Part shown: one piece after another, positions 10,721-60,428 of the stretch
Layout: each line of letters starts with the position of its first letter
Position numbering within the stretch: the first letter of the stretch is position 1
Assembly: GCA_017428945.1 (NCBI GenBank)
Contig: JAFRPW010000027.1
Coordinates: forward strand, 7,202-71,201
Direction: 5' to 3'
DNA: 64,000 nt
From: Bacteroidales bacterium
GTDB taxonomy: Bacteria > Bacteroidota > Bacteroidia > Bacteroidales > UBA932
Notes under the pieces: model-generated
What the model saw: the letters and a program-made list of their open reading frames with translations, nothing else
Database searches by the model: none
Told to the model about the DNA's origin: nothing
Made by a program: the position numbers and the translations under genes

Positions 10721-12334
10721 ATGAAGAGAATCGTATATGCCCTTTCCGTGGCGGTATTTATGGCCGCGGGGGCTTCCGCACAGGCACAGAGCAAGGAATT
10801 CACCCTGGGACAGTGGGTGGAACTGCATAACGCAATACTGAAGGAGCTTAACCGCTCATATGTAGACTCGCTGGAAGTAGGCCGCATAGAGAGGGAAGGC
10901 GTGGACGCCATGCTTGGGGCCCTGGATCCTTATACCATGTATGTTCCCGAAGAGGAGCAGGAAGATTTCCAGATGATGCTTTCAAGTGCCTACGGCGGCA
11001 TAGGTGCGCTCATATACAAACCGGAGACCGACGGCAATGTGTTCATAAACGAGCCCTACGCCAATTCCCCCGCAGCGAAGGCCGGCCTCCGCTGCGGAGA
11101 CCAGATTCTTTCCATCGACGGCGTCTCCACGCACGGTCTCACTGCCTCCGAGAGCTCGGAGAAAATGAGGGGAAAGCCCGGAACAAGAGTTACCTTCAAA
11201 GTAAAGAAAGTATACACGGGGGACACTGTGGAAGTGAAAGTTCTCCGCGAAAGGATAGTACTCCCTTCCGTAGAGTATGCCGGAATGCTGGACAGTGGCG
11301 ACGGCTACATAATGCTTACAAAGTTCACTGACGGCGTCTGGAGGGACGTCAGAAATTCCGTCATGAAACTGCGTTCCAAAGGCATGAAACGCCTTGTCAT
11401 TGACCTTCGAGGCAACGGCGGCGGCCTGCTGGCGGAAGCCGTCAACATTGTGTCGCTGTTTGTTCCCAAAGGCTCCGTGGTGGTTTCATCCAAGGGCAAG
11501 ACTCCCGGCAGCAATGCCACATACTGTACTTCGACGGACCCTGTCGATACGGAAATACCCATAGTTGTACTGGTGGACTCCGGCAGCGCATCGGCCTCCG
11601 AGATAGTGTCCGGAGCGCTTCAGGACCTTGACAGGGCAACCATAATAGGCACCCGCACTTACGGAAAGGGGTTGGTCCAGAGCATAAGGCCTCTCCCGTA
11701 TGACGGCCAGATCAAGGTGACCACTGCAAAATACTACACTCCCTCAGGCCGATGTGTGCAGGCCATAGACTACTCCCACCGCAACGAGGACGGCTCCGTG
11801 GGCCACATCCCGGACTCGCTTACCCATGAGTTCAAGACCCTCCACGGACGCACGGTACGCGATGGCGGCGGCATTACCCCGGACTTCGAAGTAAAGCCCC
11901 ATAAGTATTCCCGTCTCACGTACTCCCTGGTGCTTGGCGGCATTGTGGAGCAGTATGCCCTGGATTACGTCATGCGCCACCAGTCCGTACCCGAAGACTT
12001 CCACTTCACGGAATTCGAAGACTTCGTGGCATTTGCGCAGGACAAGGAGTTCGACTACCGTTCCACCGCCCGCGCCATGTTTGACCAGATGCGCGGCACC
12101 CTTAAGGAAGACGGTCTTGAAGAGGCCATGATGCCTCAGCTTGACGCTCTCCAGAAGGCCCTGGAAATGGACAAGGCCACATTCCTCAGTCTCAAGAAAG
12201 AGGAGATTGTGCCGTTCATTGAAGAAGAGATCGTAGTGCGCTACTACTTCCAGGAAGCCGGGATCCGTATCCGGCTCCGTTACGACGAGCAGCTTCACCA
12301 GGCCCTCCTTCAGCCCTCCATCACCCTCCCGTAA
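10721..12334 (+). CDS. S41 family C-terminal processing peptidase (PDZ plus catalytic domain)
   Basis: Signal peptide, LDPYT, GIGA PDZ, DLRGNGGGLL, SASASEIVSGALQD, GKGLVQ, TTAKYYTPSGR. Confidence 0.93.
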   Translation: MKRIVYALSVAVFMAAGASAQAQSKEFTLGQWVELHNAILKELNRSYVDSLEVGRIEREGVDAMLGALDPYTMYVPEEEQEDFQMMLSSAYGGIGALIYKPETDGNVFINEPYANSPAAKAGLRCGDQILSIDGVSTHGLTASESSEKMRGKPGTRVTFKVKKVYTGDTVEVKVLRERIVLPSVEYAGMLDSGDGYIMLTKFTDGVWRDVRNSVMKLRSKGMKRLVIDLRGNGGGLLAEAVNIVSLFVPKGSVVVSSKGKTPGSNATYCTSTDPVDTEIPIVVLVDSGSASASEIVSGALQDLDRATIIGTRTYGKGLVQSIRPLPYDGQIKVTTAKYYTPSGRCVQAIDYSHRNEDGSVGHIPDSLTHEFKTLHGRTVRDGGGITPDFEVKPHKYSRLTYSLVLGGIVEQYALDYVMRHQSVPEDFHFTEFEDFVAFAQDKEFDYRSTARAMFDQMRGTLKEDGLEEAMMPQLDALQKALEMDKATFLSLKKEEIVPFIEEEIVVRYYFQEAGIRIRLRYDEQLHQALLQPSITLP

Positions 12335-12344
12335 CCTCTCTCCC

Positions 12345-12473
12345 GTCCACCAAAATGCCGTTTTTGGTGGACAAGTTGACGTTTTGGCCGGTTTGTCCAC
12401 CGATTTGGCGTTTTTGGTGGACAAGTTGGCGTTTTGGCGGGTTTGTCCACCGAAATGGGGTGTTTTGGTGGAT
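12345..12473. repeat. REP family A array, 3 hairpin units, 50-bp period
   Basis: GTCCAC at 12345, 12395 and 12445, each closed by GTGGAC/GTGGAT 16-17 nt later; conserved 22-nt linkers aagttg(a/g)cgttttgg(c)cgg(g)ttt. Confidence 0.92.
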
Positions 12474-17529: not shown

Positions 17530-17628
17530 TGTAAAAGGTTCGGTTTTATTGGCCGAACCTTCCACGTTATTTGCTTTGCAGTGCCGTTTTATGTAAATGG
17601 TTCGGCAAAAAATACCGAACCTTTTACA
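17530..17628. repeat. REP family B element (REPIN/MITE-like), copy 1
   Basis: Perfect 15-bp terminal inverted repeats tgtaaaaggttcggt / accgaaccttttaca; each end also forms its own hairpin. Near-identical copy at 60329-60428. Confidence 0.88.
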
Positions 17629-35714: not shown

Positions 35715-35793
35715 ATCCACCAAAACACCCCATTTCGGTGGACAAACCCGGCAAAACGGCAACTTGTCCACCAAAAACGCCAAATCGGTGGAC
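35715..35793. repeat. REP family A array, 2 hairpin units (opposite orientation to the 12345 array)
   Basis: ATCCAC 35715..GTGGAC 35743 and GTCCAC 35766..GTGGAC 35793. Confidence 0.9.
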
Positions 35794-40796: not shown

Positions 40797-43297
40797 AGAA
40801 ATTAGACCAGTTCTTGTTGAAGTCTTTCGTAGGACCGTTCATCGCGATCCTGGCGATTGTTACGTTCATACTGGTCTTGCAGTTTCTTTGGCTGTACATA
40901 GACGAGCTGGTTGGTAAAGGCTTGGAGCTCAAGGTTATACTTGAGTTCCTCATGTGGGGTAGCTGCCAGACCCTGCCGCTGGCCATACCGCTGGCAACGC
41001 TGCTCAGCTCCATGATGACGCTGGGGCAGATGGGAGAGCAGTTCGAGCTCACCGCCATCAAGGCATCGGGCATTTCCCTCACGAGGGTGCTCTTCCCCAT
41101 GGTCATAGTGGCCATCCTCATTTCCATCGGCGCCTTCTACATCACGGACCGCCTGGTTCCCTATTCCATCAACCAAATCTACACCATGAGGGACGATATC
41201 GGCCGCACAAAGTCGGAGATAAAAATCCCCACCGGAACCTTCTACGACGGCATCGAGGGCTACATCCTCCGCGTCGAGGACAGGGACAAGAGCACCGGCA
41301 TGATGTACAAGATACAGGTTTACGACCACACCGTGGGCAAAGGCAACACCCGGATAACGGTAGCGGACAGCGGCGTCATAAAGATGTCCAAGAGCAAGGA
41401 CTACCTCACTTTCCAGCTCTACGACGGCACCAACTACCAGGAGGACAACAAACGGAAGTACAGGGACACCACCCTGGCGCTCCAGAGGGTACATTTCCGC
41501 AGCCAGGAACTGGTGATTCCGCTGGAGAACTACGCTTTCCACCACTCCGACAGCGCCCGGTACGGTGAACAGGTCCGCTCCATGAGCCTCAAGGATCTCC
41601 GGCACGGGCACGATTCCCTGTCCAATCTGGTGGCAGAGGGTGCAGACAAGCATCTGAAGGAGTTCTCCAACCAGAACAGCCTCACCTACCGCGCCCAGCT
41701 GGACACATCATGGCGGGAGAAGGCATCGACAACCCTGCCGCTCCCCGGAGAGAGGAAGTGGACATCCCTGAAGGATAAGCTCAGGGGCTACGAGAACGCC
41801 GCCACCGCCGCCCGCCAGTTCGAGAACCTCCTCCACAGCCAGGGCATGGAAGGCTACAATTACACCAACCTGATTCGCCGCACGGACGTGGAGATTTGGA
41901 AGAAGTACGCCACGGCGCTCGCCTGCCTGCTGCTGTTCTTCATCGGCGCACCGGTTGGAGCCATCCTCAAAAAAGGCGGTCTGGGTACTCCTGCCATTAT
42001 CTCACTGCTGTTCTTCGTGCTGTACTGGGTGGTGGACATCACCGGCGAGCGCCTTGGAAACAACGGCACCGTGACGCCATTCGTGGGCAAATTCATATCG
42101 GCCTTCGTGCTGGCGCCGATAGGAGGGCTGCTTACTGTCAAGGCGGTGCAGGACAAGAGCATCTTCAACGTTGACGGCCTCAAGATATGGATAAGGAAAG
42201 CCAAGAGTAAACTCATTCGCATGTTCAGGAAAACAAGAATAGTGTACATGGGCACTCCGGAGTTCTCCGTAGGCCCTCTGGACGGTCTTCTGAAGGCCGG
42301 ATACAAAGTAATCGGAGTAGTTACCGCCCCGGACAAACCTTCCGGACGCGGTCTCAAGGTCAGTGAATCGGCGGTGAAGAAATACGCCGTGGAGAAAGGC
42401 ATTCCGGTTCTGCAGCCGGAAAAACTCAAGGATCCGGAATTCCTCATGGCCCTGAGCAACTGGAAGGCCGATCTGTTTGTAGTGGTAGGCTTCAGGATGC
42501 TGCCGGAAGCGGTCTGGAAAATGCCCAAGCTGGGCACATTCAACCTCCACGCCGCCCTGCTTCCGCAGTATCGCGGCGCCGCCCCCATCAACTGGGCCGT
42601 CATAAACGGAGAGAACATCACCGGTGTAACCACCTTCATGATAGACAGCAGGATAGACACCGGCGGCATCATACTCCGTTCAGAATGCCGCGTGGAGCCC
42701 ACGGACACCGCCGGAACCCTTCACGACAAGCTCATGGCAATAGGTACCGACCTGGTTGTCGAGACTGTCGAGGGCATAATCCAGCACAATATTGAGCTCC
42801 GCGTCCAGCGCAGTTTCATCCAGGGTGACGAGCTCCTCAAGCCCGCACCCAAGCTCACCCGGGAACTCCAGCACATAGACTGGAATGCCCCCACCCGCAC
42901 CGTTTACAACCTTGTCCGCGGCCTTTCCCCCTTCCCCTGCGCTTTTACTGAGTTGGTACCTGGAGGAGAGGCTGCGCCCTCCGTCATTCCCGGCTCCGCT
43001 TCCTCCGTCATTCCCGGCTCCGACCGGGAATCTCCCCTCCAGCTGAAGGTGTACTTCGGAGAGATGCGCTATGACCTCCACGCCGCCCCCGGAACCGTGC
43101 TCAGCGACGGCAAGACATACTTTGCCATAGCCACCCAGGACGGGGCCCTGGCCATCACGGACCTCCAGCTCGCCGGCAAGAAGCGCATGGACGTCAAGTC
43201 CTTCCTCCTTGGCTTCCGTAACCCCACATCGTACACCACCACCCCCGGCACCTCCTCCTCCGAGCTCGCCAAAGCCGCCCCCGTGGAGGACAATTAA
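40793..43297 (+). CDS. fmt: LptF/LptG-family permease fused in frame to methionyl-tRNA formyltransferase
   Basis: Residues 1-~476 are YjgP/YjgQ-like ([44 protein letters not shown]). From codon 477 (ATG 42221): [37 protein letters not shown]. No stop codon between them. Confidence 0.88.
42978..43031 (+). repeat. In-frame palindromic insertion in Fmt (24-bp tandem duplication plus ATTCCCGG-N6-CCGGGAAT hairpin)
   Basis: cctccgtcattcccggctccg at 42978 and 43002; 8-bp perfect stem 43010-43017/43024-43031; encodes [18 protein letters not shown]. Confidence 0.7.
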
Positions 43298-43305
43298 CCC
43301 CCCTT

Positions 43306-43515
43306 CCGTAGACAAACCCCGGTTTTCGCCTACTTATCCACCAAAAACGCCAAATCGGTGGACGAACCCGGCAAAACCCCGACTTATCCACCAAAACACC
43401 CCTTTTCCGTGGACAAACCTGGCAAAACGTCAACTTATCCACCAAAACACCCCATTTCCGTGGACAAACCCGGCAAAACCCCAACTTGTCCACCAAAAAC
43501 GCCAAATCGGTGGAC
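43306..43515. repeat. REP family A array, 4 full hairpin units plus a half unit
   Basis: (A/G)TCCAC at 43336, 43386, 43437 and 43488, each closed by GTGGAC; 50-51-bp period. Confidence 0.93.
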
Positions 43516-43545
43516 GGATGGGGGAAAATGATTATCTTTGCTGAT

Positions 43546-44187
43546 ATGAAACGCATTGTCATATTATGTAACGGGGCTTTCCCCACGGAACCGTTTCCGC
43601 TGTTCCTTCTGGACAATGCGGAAGGCGTGGTTTGCTGCGACGGCTCGGTCATCAAGTGGCTGGCGTACAATCCCCAGGCTGCGCCTATGGTGATTGTCGG
43701 GGATATGGACTCTCTGCCTGAGGAACTGAGGGTGCGGTTTTCCGGCATTGTTTACCATGAGACAGAGCAGGACTACAATGACCTCACAAAAGCCATGCGT
43801 TGGGTTCTCCGTGAGCATCCGGAGGTTCAGGAAATAACCATCCTGGGCGCAACTGGCCTTAGGGAAGACCACACCATCGGCAACCTTGGCCTTCTCATGG
43901 AATACACCCGCCTCTTTGACCTTGGGGACCGCAAGGTGACCATGGTGAGCGACTTCGGGACCGCCTTCGCCATAACAGACAGCTGCGACCTCCACCTGGG
44001 TGAAGGCCGCAGAGTATCGCTTTTCAGTGCCGACAATACGTTGAAGATATCCTCAACGGGGCTTCAGTGGCCCACGGACGATGTTGTCTTTGACGCCTGG
44101 TGGAAGGCAACCTTGAACCGGACTACGGAACCAATCGTCATGCTGCGGTTCAATCACCCTTCCGCGGCACTTGTAATTACAGACTGA
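43546..44187 (+). CDS. Thiamine pyrophosphokinase
   Basis: VVCCDG, IVGDMDS, EQDYNDLTKA, GATGLREDHTIGN, GLQWP. Start MKRIVIL follows TATCTTTG (43533-43540). Confidence 0.88.
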   Translation: MKRIVILCNGAFPTEPFPLFLLDNAEGVVCCDGSVIKWLAYNPQAAPMVIVGDMDSLPEELRVRFSGIVYHETEQDYNDLTKAMRWVLREHPEVQEITILGATGLREDHTIGNLGLLMEYTRLFDLGDRKVTMVSDFGTAFAITDSCDLHLGEGRRVSLFSADNTLKISSTGLQWPTDDVVFDAWWKATLNRTTEPIVMLRFNHPSAALVITD

Positions 44188-45037
44188 AATTCCGGCTGGC
44201 AAACGGCAGGGCGGTTCTGAGAGATACGTGCCAGTACTCCCAGTTGTGTACTCCGTCCCTTACACGGAATTCCGCCTTTACTCCTTTCTCACGCATCTTG
44301 GCATAGAAGGCTGTGCTGAGATCGAAGATGAAGTCGTCGTCTCCGCAGTCCACGAACCACTTTACTGTTCGCAGGTTTTCGAGGGTGGCGTCATCGGCCT
44401 TGTCAAGGAAATCTATGGCAGAATGCCGGCTCACTGCGCGCTGGGTGAAGGTGAACTTGGTGGTGGGCTGCTTCTGAGTGCCTGAACTGACCTCATTCAT
44501 CTTATTATCCAGCCACGGGCTCATTGCATAGCAGCTGGAGAACATGTCCGGATGGCGCTGGCAGTACACTATTGAGCCGCCGCCTCCCATGGAAAGACCC
44601 ATTATCGCTCGCGCCTGCTTGCTTCCGCCGCAATTGAATTTTTCCTCTACATTTGGAAGGAATTCAGTGAAGAAATAGTTCTCATACGGCCATTCAGGCA
44701 TGTTGAAGTATCCGTTGGGATAGTTGTGGATGTCCTTGTCTCCGGCATTGGGCATTACAATCACAACTGGCACGAGTTCTCCTGAGCGGATTAGCTCATC
44801 GGCAACCCAGCTTATCCTGCCAAGATTGTCCCAGGCGGTGTAGTCGTCCGAGAGACCATGGAGGAGGTATATCACGGGATAGTGATTGGCGGCATCGTAC
44901 CCTTCGGGCAGATACACGTTGTACTTCTGGTCTGCATCCAGCTTGCTGCTGTGGATGCTCTCCGTAACGATACGGCTCTGCGCCGCGGCAGCAACTGCCG
45001 CCGCCAAAAGCGCCACAATGACGATAATGCGTTTCAT
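44177..45037 (-). CDS. Secreted alpha/beta-hydrolase esterase (CE1/Fes-like)
   Basis: Signal peptide, YPVIYLLHG, nucleophile elbow GLSMGG, DCGDDDF, GVHNWEYW. The true start is MKRIIVI (45037); the longer ORF call is REP read-through. Confidence 0.88.
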   Translation of the reverse strand: MKRIIVIVALLAAAVAAAAQSRIVTESIHSSKLDADQKYNVYLPEGYDAANHYPVIYLLHGLSDDYTAWDNLGRISWVADELIRSGELVPVVIVMPNAGDKDIHNYPNGYFNMPEWPYENYFFTEFLPNVEEKFNCGGSKQARAIMGLSMGGGGSIVYCQRHPDMFSSCYAMSPWLDNKMNEVSSGTQKQPTTKFTFTQRAVSRHSAIDFLDKADDATLENLRTVKWFVDCGDDDFIFDLSTAFYAKMREKGVKAEFRVRDGVHNWEYWHVSLRTALPFASRNFSL

Positions 45038-45104
45038 ATCAGCAAAGATAATCATTTTCCCCCATCCGTCCACAGATTTGGCGTTTTTGGTGGATAAGTT
45101 GGGG
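45026..45104 (-). repeat. 79-bp inverted copy of 43479-43557 (REP hairpin, -7 box and start codons)
   Basis: The reverse complement matches 43479-43557 with 2 mismatches. Confidence 0.92.
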
Positions 45105-45310
45105 GTTGGTGGATACAAAAGCCAAAGTATCAAATCCGGAACCTTCAGAAACGTATAATTTTTTCGCAATGCCCTACAGATATCCAGGAGAGCGTTTTTG
45201 ATAGTGTTTCTGAATTTCAATCGGTGGAAAGACACACAATCGTTTAAAAAGATTATACGAATCTGAAGGTGAGTTTTCCGGAGAGCTTTTAAATTTGGCA
45301 AAAACTGCTT

Positions 45311-46222
45311 ATGGCAACGATACAAGAGGAACTGTTCCAGCGTTCCAAACCATTTTTCCACTATTGTTCCCTGCCATTCGAGGATGCTCTTCTATACGAT
45401 GACGACAAACAGATGGGCGCAGTCCTGAACTTCATTGCTGTGGCGCTGATGCATGTCCCGGGCTGCAGGCTTCTGGCTTTTGCAGTGATGTCAAACCACA
45501 TTCACCTGGTGGTGGAGGGAGAACGTCCTTACTGCGACGTCTTTATAGGAAAGCTTACCGAGTTGCTGGATAATTATTATCGATATAACGGGAAGGCCCG
45601 TCTTAGCGGGCACATCGAATTTGAGGCAATCCACATTGACTCTTTAAGGATGCTTCGGGCAGAGATAATTTACACTATCCGCAACCCGTTCGTCGTAAGG
45701 ACCGATGTGAATGTATTTGCTTGCCCTTCCACCAGCGGATATCTGTACTTCAACCCTATGCTTAAGCGTGAAGGCATACCCGCTTCGAACCTCCGGGGAA
45801 GGGCCCTGAGGGACTTCCTGCATACACGCAACGTGATTGCGCTGACTGACAGGTTCTATGTAAAAGACGGCGCTGCGCAGCCCTGGAGTTTCGTGGATTA
45901 TGAAAGAGCAATGTCGTTCTTCCCCAGCGCCAGGGACTTCGTACTAGGGACCATAAGAAATGTCGAAGGACAGGTAGAGATAGCCAACAGGCACGGAGAA
46001 CCAGTCTCTCTTGCCGACCAGGAAGTTCTTTCACTGGCATATCGTCTGTGCGGAGAACGATATGGTAATGTGAAACTCTCAAACCTTGGCACCACGGAAA
46101 GAATGCAGCTTGGCCTGAAGTTGAAAAACGAGTACCGCGTCTCCAACGGCCAGATTGCCCGTACTTTGGGGCTGTCCCTCAAGGACGTGAACGCCATGTT
46201 CCCCCTTTCCGCCAAGATTTAA
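45311..46222 (+). mobile_element. HUH/Y1 tyrosine transposase, REP-associated (RAYT/TnpA-REP-like), with a C-terminal HTH
   Basis: FAVMSNHIHLVV (HUH), IIYTIRNP (catalytic Tyr, YxxxNP), STSGY, C-terminal VSNGQIARTLGLS helix-turn-helix. Flanked by family A hairpins on both sides; TAAATTTG -7 box at 45290-45297. Confidence 0.82.
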
Positions 46223-46230
46223 GCCAGGCC

Positions 46231-46359
46231 ATCCACCAAAACCCCGCATTTCCGTGGACAAACCCGCCAAAACGCCAACTTGTCCACAAAAAACGCCAAA
46301 TCCGTGGACAAACCCCGAAAAACGGGCACTTGTCCACGGAAAACGTCATTTTGGTGGAT
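46231..46359. repeat. REP family A array, 3 hairpin units, directly downstream of the RAYT-like gene
   Basis: ATCCAC 46231, GTCCAC 46282 and 46332, closed by GTGGAC/GTGGAT at 46254, 46304 and 46354. Confidence 0.92.
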
Positions 46360-46367
46360 GGTAACGG

Positions 46368-47732
46368 CTACTTGTTCAGCTGGTCGGCGCTCTGGATGAA
46401 CTTGGCCAGGTCTTCGTCGGAGACGTGGTAGTTCTGCATCTCGCCGGAGAAGTAGCTGTCGTAGGCGCTCATATCCACGAAGCCGTGGCCGGAGAGGTTG
46501 AAGAGGATGGTTTTCTTCTCGCCTGTTTCTTTGCACTTCAGGGCTTCCTGGATGGTGGCGGCAATGGCATGGCAGCTCTCTGGAGCGGGGATGATGCCCT
46601 CTGTCTGGGCAAACAGCACTCCCGCGGCGAAGGAATCCTTCTGCTCGATGTCCACGGCCTCCATGAAGCCGTCCTTCATGAGCTGGGAAAGGATGACGCC
46701 TGCGCCGTGGTAGCGGAGACCGCCGGCGTGGATGGAGGCGGGCTTGAAGGTATGTCCAAGGGTGAACATGGGGAGAAGCGGTGTCATGCCGGCCTCGTCA
46801 CCAAAGTCGTACTCGAACTTGCCCCTGGTGAGTTTGGGGCAGGAGTACGGCTCGGCTGCGATGAAACGGGTCTTCTTGCCTTCCAGGATATTGTGGCGCA
46901 TGAACGGGAATGCAATTCCGGAGAAGTTGGAGCCGCCTCCGAAGCAGGCAATCACTATGTCCGGGTACTCTCCCGTCAGTTCCATCTGCTTCTCCGCCTC
47001 AAGGCCGATGACCGTCTGGTGCATGCACACGTGGTTCAGGACCGATCCCAGTGCGTATTTGCAGTTGGGGGTGGAGACGGCCAGTTCGATGGCCTCGGAG
47101 ATGGCGCAGCCAAGGGAGCCCTTGTCGTTGGGGTTACGGGTGATGATGTCCTTTCCGGCGCGGGTGGACATTGAAGGGGAAGGAGTGATGGCGGCGCCGA
47201 AAGCCTGCATGATGGAGCGACGGTAGGGCTTCTGCTCATAGCTTATCTTTACCATGTAGACAGCGCAGTCAATGCCGAATTTCTTTGTGGCATAGCTCAG
47301 TGCACCGCCCCACTGGCCGGCACCGGTCTCCGTGGTGAGGTTGGTGATGCCCTGCTCCTTGGCGTAGTATGCCTGGGCTATTGCGGAGTTCAGCTTGTGG
47401 CTGCCGGCGGGGGATACGCTCTCGTTCTTGAAATAGATGTGGGCGGGAGTGCCAAGGGCGGCTTCAAGCTCGTATGCGCGCACAAGTGGTGTGCAGCGGT
47501 ATGCGGCATACTGCTCGCGTACGGGCTCGGGGATGGGAATCCACTGGTCGGTCTGGTTCAGCTCCTGGTCTGCGCAGGCCTTGCAGAAGATGGGGTAGAG
47601 GTCTTCCGGCTTAAGCGGCTGGCGCGTTGCGGGATGAAGGAACGGCAGCGGTTTGTTGGGCATTATGGCCTGGATGTTAAAATAATGGGTGGGGATTTCG
47701 CTCTCCGGGAGCATGTATTTTTTCTGTCTCAT
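46368..47732 (-). CDS. trpB: TrpB2-type tryptophan synthase beta-like PLP enzyme (stand-alone)
   Basis: GSHKLNSAIAQAYY (PLP Lys), TETGAGQWG, GGGSNF, HAGGLRYHG, FNLSGHG. Confidence 0.92.
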   Translation of the reverse strand: MRQKKYMLPESEIPTHYFNIQAIMPNKPLPFLHPATRQPLKPEDLYPIFCKACADQELNQTDQWIPIPEPVREQYAAYRCTPLVRAYELEAALGTPAHIYFKNESVSPAGSHKLNSAIAQAYYAKEQGITNLTTETGAGQWGGALSYATKKFGIDCAVYMVKISYEQKPYRRSIMQAFGAAITPSPSMSTRAGKDIITRNPNDKGSLGCAISEAIELAVSTPNCKYALGSVLNHVCMHQTVIGLEAEKQMELTGEYPDIVIACFGGGSNFSGIAFPFMRHNILEGKKTRFIAAEPYSCPKLTRGKFEYDFGDEAGMTPLLPMFTLGHTFKPASIHAGGLRYHGAGVILSQLMKDGFMEAVDIEQKDSFAAGVLFAQTEGIIPAPESCHAIAATIQEALKCKETGEKKTILFNLSGHGFVDMSAYDSYFSGEMQNYHVSDEDLAKFIQSADQLNK

Positions 47733-60328: not shown

Positions 60329-60428
60329 ATGTAAAAGGTTCGGTTTTTTGTGCCGAACCTTTTACGTTATATGGCCTGTAGTGCCGTTTTGTGTAAATGA
60401 TTCGGTCAAAAAAACCGAACCTTTACAT
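60329..60428. repeat. REP family B element, copy 2
   Basis: atgtaaaaggttcggt...accgaacctttacat; colinear with 17530-17628; sits between convergent genes. Confidence 0.88.

Follow-up and report, generated by a model that had tools for sequence, protein, structure and literature searches.

Repetitive extragenic palindromic (REP) sequences and the REP-associated tyrosine transposases (RAYTs) have, to our knowledge, been studied almost entirely in proteobacteria, and the locus described here raises the question of whether a gene of the Bacteroidales stands in the same relation to the repeats around it. The locus lies in a 64-kb stretch of a Bacteroidales bacterium genome (contig JAFRPW010000027.1), which we call the window and whose coordinates count from its first letter throughout. 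An earlier note on this DNA had described a RAYT-like HUH (histidine–hydrophobic residue–histidine) transposase bracketed by hairpins of one repeat family. The ORF (open reading frame) list and the translation confirmed its 303-residue ORF with MSNHIHLVV and IIYTIRNP, and the hairpin coordinates that it gave (45068-45095, 46231-46359, 12345, 35715, 43336) are all correct. We consider it probable (about 0.7) that the locus is a REPtron-like system, namely a vertically inherited single-copy gene for a divergent class-2 Y1 (single-tyrosine) HUH nuclease of single-stranded DNA, embedded in its cognate repeat. The observations that carry this reading are the fold and catalytic motifs of the protein, the purifying selection on its gene, the association of gene and repeat, and the dispersal and whole-unit turnover of the repeat. 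As far as computation can test it, the REP/RAYT interpretation is supported, each computational test suggested in the earlier note having turned out in its favour. The arrangement as such is known from proteobacteria; here it involves a protein family of the Bacteroidales that had not been described and whose repeat is built differently.

Fold, motifs and inheritance of the RAYT-like protein

The AlphaFold (AF2) model of the 303-residue protein, built on an alignment of 29 homologues, reached a predicted local distance difference test (pLDDT) score of 90.5 and a predicted template modelling (pTM) score of 0.83. Its top match in a Foldseek search of the PDB was E. coli TnpA-REP with a bound REP hairpin (4er8_A; E 2.1e-4, 143 columns), followed by the TnpA proteins of IS200, ISDra2 and IS608, with 4er8, 2ec2, 2xm3 and 2vjv all at probability 1.00. 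On this model the protein belongs to the Y1 HUH endonuclease superfamily (IS200/RAYT fold), which bears out the RAYT-like HUH transposase first proposed. Residues H63, H65, Y121 and N125 are invariant among the 29 homologues, down to 38 % identity, with Y121 and N125 in a Y121-x3-N125 spacing and N125 forming part of the Y..NP motif; in the C-terminal segment SNGQIAR, the same holds for N279, Q281 and R284.

The link to RayT by sequence is indirect and runs through long Pfam-positive Y1_Tnp proteins of other phyla, obtained from the genome scan. These proteins align with the window family in hhalign at 98.9 % (E 1.8e-17, residues 11-146), over a stretch with three motifs, HUH, Y..NP and, beyond the catalytic helix, (W)SS/SG, and they match E. 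coli RayT at E 4.4e-5. Since the family is tied to RayT through them, we place it, by sequence comparison, as a divergent offshoot of the class-2 Y1 proteins, which comprise RAYTs and the tyrosine transposases associated with terminal inverted repeats (TIRYTs), with subclass 2.1 as the nearest group. Searches of NCBIfam, PHROGs and PADLOC with the 303-residue protein gave no match, and sequence and profile searches of the PDB returned just IS200 transposases around the HUH motif (E 0.14-1.4). The sole recurrent weak match in the family was Pfam Y1_Tnp, found in 17 of 29 members (best E 4.2e-4).

The family is large and mostly unnamed, and Pfam and NCBIfam miss it: an exhaustive profile search recovered 348 clusters at 50 % identity with E<=1e-30, so that the family holds at least this number, and 1065 with E<=1e-10. 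In one-genome-per-species data, almost every full-length homologue (23-52 % identity) is from an uncultured rumen or gut Bacteroidales; one contig, L018, is labelled Faecalibacillus (loci and contigs used for comparison are cited by L numbers). The 54 close homologues, of about 305 residues, are nearly all nameless, with one NCBI record named "hypothetical protein" and one IMG record named "REP element-mobilizing transposase RayT".

When modelled separately, the C-terminal ~120 residues form a confident helical domain (AF2 pLDDT 85.7) that ends in a helix-turn-helix (HTH)-like SNGQIAR...V..MF. This domain had no significant match in Pfam, among PDB sequences or in Foldseek, where the best hits were generic HTH proteins (E 0.87). 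The C-terminal HTH of the earlier note thus stands as a sequence pattern and not as a recognized fold or profile, and is a pattern-level call only. The domain probably adds DNA binding, either to the repeat or to the gene's own promoter, or a regulatory function.

The gene behaves as a single-copy host gene. An identical protein is encoded on 23 contigs from different samples, with the same neighbours in all and hence in one synteny, and an orthologue of 72 % identity (L009/L010) occupies the same place, between the esterase and PALP-enzyme genes. The RAYT-like gene diverges faster than its neighbours and in step with them, at 72 % versus 81-97 % identity in L009 and 63 % versus 75-94 % in L003. 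Its non-synonymous and synonymous differences from the L009 orthologue (pN/pS 0.17/0.78) show that it is under purifying selection. Genomes usually hold one homologue, two of about 29 species genomes having two divergent copies, and no tnpB was found at the locus on the contigs compared for synteny.

In L003 (63 % identity) the gene is displaced by about 4 kb and stands at one end of a segment whose orientation is opposite to that in the window; over longer times, then, the locus is not fixed in place. The comparison of L003 9424-11109 with the window synteny, represented by L001 14722-20912, places the gene together with its 8+4-unit arrays at the end of the inverted segment. This segment carries extra genes (Peptidase_U32, TPR, M16), and the esterase gene is absent between the kinase and PALP genes. 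The hairpin arrays may act as recombination breakpoints.

Unit, dispersal and genomic company of the hairpin repeat

The pattern TCCAC-N14-20-GTGGA has 14 matches in the window against 0.54 expected, the maximum in 100 shuffles being 3. They start at 12346, 12396 and 12446; 35716 and 35767; 43337, 43387, 43438 and 43489; 45069; 46232, 46283 and 46333; and 38027. The last, within a gene and with a loop unrelated to the others, is attributed to chance; the remaining 13 copies form one family and fall into five clusters between genes, the RAYT-like gene having one of them on each side. Tandem Repeats Finder independently reports arrays with a period of 50-51 bp at 12345-12472, 43332-43498 and 46232-46358. 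The hairpin upstream of the gene (45069-45094) is in reverse orientation, 216 nt 5' of the ATG.

Within arrays, the hairpin has a stem of 8-9 bp (TTGTCCACC/GGTGGACAA) and a C-rich loop of ~14 nt. The arms read CTTGTCCACC and GGTGGACAAA at internal positions and CCATCCACC and GGTGGATGG at array ends, so that the foot of the hairpin is CTT(G/A)|TCCACC ... GGTGGA|CAAA in the arrays and CCA|TCCACC ... GGTGGA|TGG at their ends. One unit consists of a hairpin of 26 or 27 nt and a spacer of invariably 24 nt, CAAAC-N5-AAAA-N4-AACTTG, which gives periods of 50 bp (n=72) or 51 bp (n=40). Neighbouring units run head to tail, with the same orientation in 112 cases versus 4 opposite, and each array opens and closes on a hairpin. 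No GTAG or CGTC (GT[AG]G) tetranucleotide tag is present at the hairpin foot, and the contrast with proteobacterial REPs that had been drawn from the missing tag and the 50-bp tandem unit is upheld. As single-stranded DNA, the copies distant from the gene reach folding energies of -8.7 to -10.7 kcal/mol, with z between about -4 and -4.7. A CRISPR array was ruled out, as the 24-nt spacers are themselves a conserved family. Rfam had nothing at the gathering threshold over the whole window, nor at E<=1 in the interval 43200-46500. Between co-directional genes, arrays are found in either orientation, and the GC skew of the 64 kb is uninformative on array orientation relative to replication.

A metagenome scan with TCCACCAAAANNNCCAAATNNGTGGA yielded 76 stretches (642 kb in total), in which distinct sites were judged by flank similarity. 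Window and metagenome stretches together contain 211 hairpins of the family in 98 clusters at 46 distinct sites, and the protein-coding gene is present at only one of the 46, the window's own locus. The enrichment of the repeat anticipated in the earlier note is thus seen in the window and across these sites, the genome-wide number being an extrapolation from window and metagenome contigs, and the gene is not a multi-copy insertion sequence (IS). Array size ranges from 1 to 5 units in this species group, with at least 8 next to the gene in L003.

Unit number varies at 11 of the 28 sites sampled on more than one contig, and always by whole units, 50 or 100 bp, with flanks 97-99 % identical. The cluster upstream of the gene, for example, has one unit in the window and three in L086 and L127, an exact two-unit difference between strains whose proteins are 98.7 % identical (L086) or 99 % identical over the 227 residues on the contig (L127). 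Likewise, the array at 35715..35793 has three units in strains L089 and L119, and that at 12345..12473 two in strain L128. Empty sites were sought in near-identical strains, where only unit-number differences turned up; the sole empty site, in L009, which has no unit upstream of the gene, is too diverged for exact junctions.

The association of gene and repeat extends across the protein family. In L009/L010 the stop codon is followed by the same array of three units, L003 carries no fewer than 8 units upstream and 4 downstream from the same repeat family, and L006/L007 (44 % identity) have 6 + 8 units of ~51 bp with the box GTGCAC instead of GTCCAC/GTGGAC. Tandem Repeats Finder and a hairpin scan detected lineage-specific hairpins beside the gene in about 23 of 35 loci of the genome collection, mostly in arrays with a period of 50-53 bp. 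Their stems include GCGCAC/GTGCGC, GGTGCAAAA/TTTTGCACC, CAAGTGC/GCACTTG, GTCCG/CGGAC, GGGACCTAC/GTAGGTCCC, GACCTCCGAC/GTCGGAGGTC and GACCTAC, with stems of 12-15 bp in the most distant members. Under a strict definition, which required one and the same hairpin with a perfect 7-bp stem no more than 500 bp away on each side of the gene, 10 of 35 loci qualified, compared with 0 of 325 shifted pseudo-genes in the same loci. The flanking hairpins that the earlier note expected beside orthologues are therefore present, in homologues down to about 25 % identity as well, with the stem changing from lineage to lineage; a palindrome that is kept while its sequence shifts with the protein lineage is the signature of a cognate REP. 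Extra hairpin copies lie a few kilobases off in L014, L015, L018, L020 and L030. An A-tract (GGCAAAAC, CGAAAAC) that might mark a cleavage site common to all lineages is found in the spacers of several, not all of them.

A probable REPtron-like system and the alternatives

By analogy with TnpA-REP and IS608 TnpA (general knowledge; PMC6006769, PMC3733652), the protein would recognize the folded hairpin on single-stranded DNA, for example on the lagging-strand template, and would cut at one defined point, either in the spacer or at the foot of the hairpin, Tyr121 forming a 5'-phosphotyrosine link with the DNA while the metal is bound by H63 and H65. Rejoining of the strands could then add, remove or relocate hairpin-plus-spacer units. 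An inserted unit would recreate the recognized end, so that further insertions beside an existing hairpin would produce head-to-tail arrays.

Several points weigh against this interpretation. Nuclease activity and the spreading mechanism are what we infer and not what we observe, and the same holds for the terms used in the earlier note, the repeat as "substrate" and the protein as "domesticated". The profile of the family has no detectable similarity to E. coli RayT in hhalign (E 0.08, 19 columns), and the RAYT affiliation by sequence thus holds for the long subclass 2.1/TIRYT-type Y1_Tnp proteins and not for canonical RayT. Pfam Y1_Tnp (PF01797), which the earlier note had named as the profile to search with, gives the window protein 12.8 bits against a gathering threshold of 23 bits (E 0.14, residues 49-70 only). 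The copies adjacent to the gene are degenerate, folding at -2.3 to -5.9 kcal/mol, and that at 45069 (z = -0.5) is a family member by its sequence, not by its stability. Under the criteria used, about one-third of the distant homologue loci have no flanking repeat, and within 21 kb of sequence L003 and L006 show the repeat nowhere but next to the gene, which means that dispersal is not a universal trait. Changes in unit number could arise by replication slippage or RecA recombination without any nuclease, and dimeric binding to duplex DNA would account for the palindromic boxes equally well.

An alternative is a transposase derivative that acts mainly as a regulator or architectural protein by binding duplex DNA, free of nuclease chemistry, for which the arrays would be inverted-repeat sites about five helical turns apart that influence promoters. 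Such a protein would suit the HTH-like segment with its invariant N279, Q281 and R284, the period of 50-53 bp that is kept even where the sequence is not, the abutment of arrays on a conserved promoter-like module upstream of at least three genes, and the conserved palindrome upstream of the gene itself. We nevertheless give it only a small chance: the invariant HUH histidines and tyrosine, under purifying selection, are hard to explain without catalysis, the fold search with the C-terminal domain gave no significant DNA-binding match, and the window protein and the homologue P0010 have different putative recognition helices despite nearly identical hairpins. The chance is slighter still that the adjacency is incidental and the arrays are generic intergenic elements, be it terminators, RNA structures or slippage-prone satellites. 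The hairpins would form in RNA too, whole-unit insertions and deletions fit slippage, and arrays occupy many intergenic regions; this explanation is confronted with the lineage-specific hairpins on both sides of the gene (10/35 loci versus 0/325 controls), with the restriction of the repeat to the gene in L003 and L006, with the two array orientations between co-directional genes and with the lack of an Rfam match.

An autonomous IS200/IS605-type insertion sequence with the hairpins as its left and right ends is another alternative, which we regard as very improbable. The Y1 HUH fold, the displacement of the gene to an inversion breakpoint in L003 and the mutually inverted upstream and downstream units of the window speak for it. 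Yet each contig set has a single copy, the 23 contigs share one synteny, the gene occupies just one of the 46 repeat sites and diverges along with its neighbours, and the locus lacks tnpB; moreover, both flanks are arrays of one unit and not distinct ends, and their orientation to the gene varies between genomes. The arrays might also be clusters of DnaA boxes that titrate DnaA, the C-terminal domain being similar to DnaA domain IV, since the arms TTATCCACC/TTGTCCACA are each one base off the DnaA-box consensus TTATCCACA and some long Y1 proteins are reported to have Bac_DnaA_C-like tails (PMC6006769). The DnaA box is universal, whereas the stems of other lineages are quite different (GTGCAC, GCGCAC, GACCTAC), and the C-terminal domain has no similarity to DnaA in Pfam, PDB sequences or Foldseek; with the non-significant generic HTH folds (best E 0.87) and the lineage-variable stems we rejected this idea, to which we attach next to no weight. 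None of these rivals accounts as well as the REPtron-like system for the invariant catalytic residues combined with lineage-specific flanking hairpins.

The REPtron-like reading also has a bolder extension that we consider unlikely as it stands: beyond the upkeep of selfish REPs, the enzyme, as a domesticated HUH nuclease, would build and remodel head-to-tail arrays through successive insertions beside its own product, the arrays would carry portable modules, among them an outward-facing promoter module that now precedes at least three unrelated genes, and the system would so rewire intergenic regulation in rumen and gut Bacteroidales, with the C-terminal domain coupling duplex binding, at a period of five helical turns, to single-strand cleavage. 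A new principle would not be involved unless the array-building or the promoter-carrying part proves true.

Among known systems, the REPtrons (RAYT/TnpA-REP with REPs or bacterial interspersed mosaic elements, BIMEs; E. coli RayT, Pseudomonas, Stenotrophomonas) share with the window family the Y1 HUH fold, TnpA-REP being the best structural match, as well as a single-copy gene flanked by its own palindromic repeat, intergenic dispersal and repeat differences between lineages, and the window arrays recall the mosaic arrays of E. coli BIMEs with other short motifs. In contrast to the ~165 residues of RayT, the window protein has 303, with a helical C-terminal extension of ~170 residues; it falls below the Pfam threshold, shows no profile-level similarity to RayT and does not conserve the W-Q motif. 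Its repeat lacks the GTAG/CGTC tag, and the units are direct head-to-tail repeats, 50/51 bp in period and with a fixed spacer of 24 nt, and do not form inverted REP pairs or REP doublets forming hairpins (REPINs).

Subclass 2.1 TnpA-Y1 proteins, RAYT group 1 and TIRYTs (Quentin et al. 2018, PMC6006769; Di Nocera et al. 2013, PMC3733652) are reported with NH[YFV]H, Y[IV]xLNP and SS motifs, a Bac_DnaA_C/HTH tail and either no REPs or terminal inverted repeats of the form GGGG[AT][CG]A[CG]. These are the closest proteins by sequence, with MSNH[FIL]H, Y..(R/L)NP, (W)SS/SG and a long tail with an HTH-like end in common, although they pass Pfam and the window family has dispersed hairpin arrays in place of GGGG[AT][CG]A[CG] repeats. 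Homology of the tails was not detected, the hhalign alignment covering residues 11-146 only. Subclass 2.6 (RAYT group 5), from Bacteroidetes, has a median length of 179 residues, WQ and YIH[QN]NP motifs and "atypical secondary structures" (PMC6006769). It shares with the window family the phylum, an NH[LIV]H motif and non-canonical flanking hairpins that recur elsewhere in the genome; going by its description, the window family differs in YVIRNP, the absence of a conserved W-Q, the length of 303 residues and the long tail. The IS200/IS605 TnpA proteins (IS608, ISDra2), with their HUH/Tyr fold and hairpin recognition, are the mechanistic template, but they are multi-copy, with distinct left and right ends and often tnpB, none of which is seen in the window family. 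Among the papers that our literature search covered, none describes the window protein family or its arrays.

With dozens of lineages that have their own stems and a common unit geometry, the family amounts to a natural experiment on how Y1 nucleases read hairpins and how these pile up in tandem. The repeats are, in addition, strain-variable markers and assembly breakpoints in metagenome-assembled genomes of rumen and gut Bacteroidales, and some copies lie between promoters and start codons.

Coordinates, promoter-like module and neighbouring repeats

Table 1. Position, strand and basis of the features at and around the RAYT-like gene, in window coordinates
Feature	Position	Strand	Basis
Gene for the 303-residue RAYT-like Y1 HUH protein, stop included	45311..46222	+	ATG start, ORF list
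N-terminal Y1 HUH nuclease domain, ~residues 1-150	45311..45760	+	AF2 model, Foldseek, hhalign, motif invariance
HUH motif H63/H65	45497-45505	+	alignment
Predicted catalytic Tyr121	45671-45673	+	alignment
MSNHIHLVV, residues 60-68	45488-45514	+	translation
IIYTIRNP, residues 119-126	45665-45688	+	translation
C-terminal helical extension, residues 186-303	45866..46219	+	all-helical model, pLDDT 85.7
HTH-like segment SNGQIARTLGLSLKDVNAMF, end of C-terminal extension	~46139-46198	+	pattern-level
Putative Bacteroidetes -7 promoter box TAAATTTG, 13 nt 5' of ATG	45290..45297	+	sequence reading
Small palindrome AGATTATACGAATCT upstream of the gene, candidate operator	45250..45264	.	conserved in window, L009, L003
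Single repeat unit 5' of the gene and half-unit remnant TTGGTGGATAC	45068..45117 (hairpin 45068-45095)	-	pattern match
Three-unit array, begins 9 nt past the stop codon	46231..46359	+	pattern match, Tandem Repeats Finder
Four-unit array and degenerate leading half-unit, between LptFG-Fmt and thiamine pyrophosphokinase genes	43303..43515	+	
Two-unit array between divergent miaA-like and smpB genes	35715..35793	+	
Three-unit array with the best-formed hairpins, reverse orientation, between two + strand genes	12345..12473	-	
30-nt "promoter module" GGATGGGGGAAAATGATTATCTTTGCTGAT, abuts last hairpin, precedes kinase ATG	43516..43545	+	contains TATCTTTG, fits -7 box pattern
Module, second copy, inverted; separates hairpin 45068 from esterase ATG	45038..45067	-	sequence comparison

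The promoter consensus of Bacteroidetes is TAnnTTTG, and the putative -7 box of the gene has an equivalent, TACATTTG, at the same position upstream of the gene in L009 and L003. The palindrome, as AGATT(T)ATACGAATCT, is also found ~47-61 nt 5' of the gene in L009 and L003, that is, in three species including that of the window. It may serve as an operator, perhaps one at which the RAYT-like protein regulates its own gene by means of its C-terminal domain.

The 30-nt module (GGATGGGGGAAAATGATTATCTTTGC), a putative promoter by its -7 box, abuts the 3'-terminal hairpin before the start codons of at least three different genes (L109 1374 and 119(rc), L116, L131 and the window), suggesting that the repeat family may carry or recruit an outward-facing promoter. 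In the window, an inverted repeat of ~70 bp (43489-43557 and 45026-45094) brackets the convergent thiamine-pyrophosphokinase and esterase genes and comprises the module together with the terminal hairpin and the four initial codons, ATGAAACGCATT (MKRI). The kinase of the sister strain L086 begins with ATGAACGGCATT (MNGI), and because this start differs from the shared MKRI, gene conversion between the inverted copies, reaching into the coding sequence, appears to have occurred in the window strain.

Other short elements adjoin the arrays. The hairpin element TGAGATCCCCGATCAGGTCGGGGATGACGG abuts their 3' ends at no fewer than ten contig loci (L058, L063, L064, L076, L082, L083, L090, L094, L102, L117), about seven distinct sites by flank, with arms ATCCCCGA/TCGGGGAT that are sometimes followed by GGGGATGACG repeats. 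Positions 1133-1224 of the window hold two copies, with a 52-bp period, of GGCCACG-TTTTCCCGCGTTTC-CGTGGCC followed by TGGGGTGAC, an element with the geometry of the main family and another stem, which adjoins a main-family hairpin in L098. In L006, an annotated minus-strand gene of 204 residues (10921-11535) lies almost wholly inside the array downstream of the homologue and is very probably no true gene, the ORF being a by-product of the repeat. Finally, a 95-nt repeat occurs at 17530-17624 and 60330-60424 of the window (84 % identical), with two long hairpins AAAGGTTCGG...CCGAACCTTT per copy, and represents a separate family that is possibly terminator-like.

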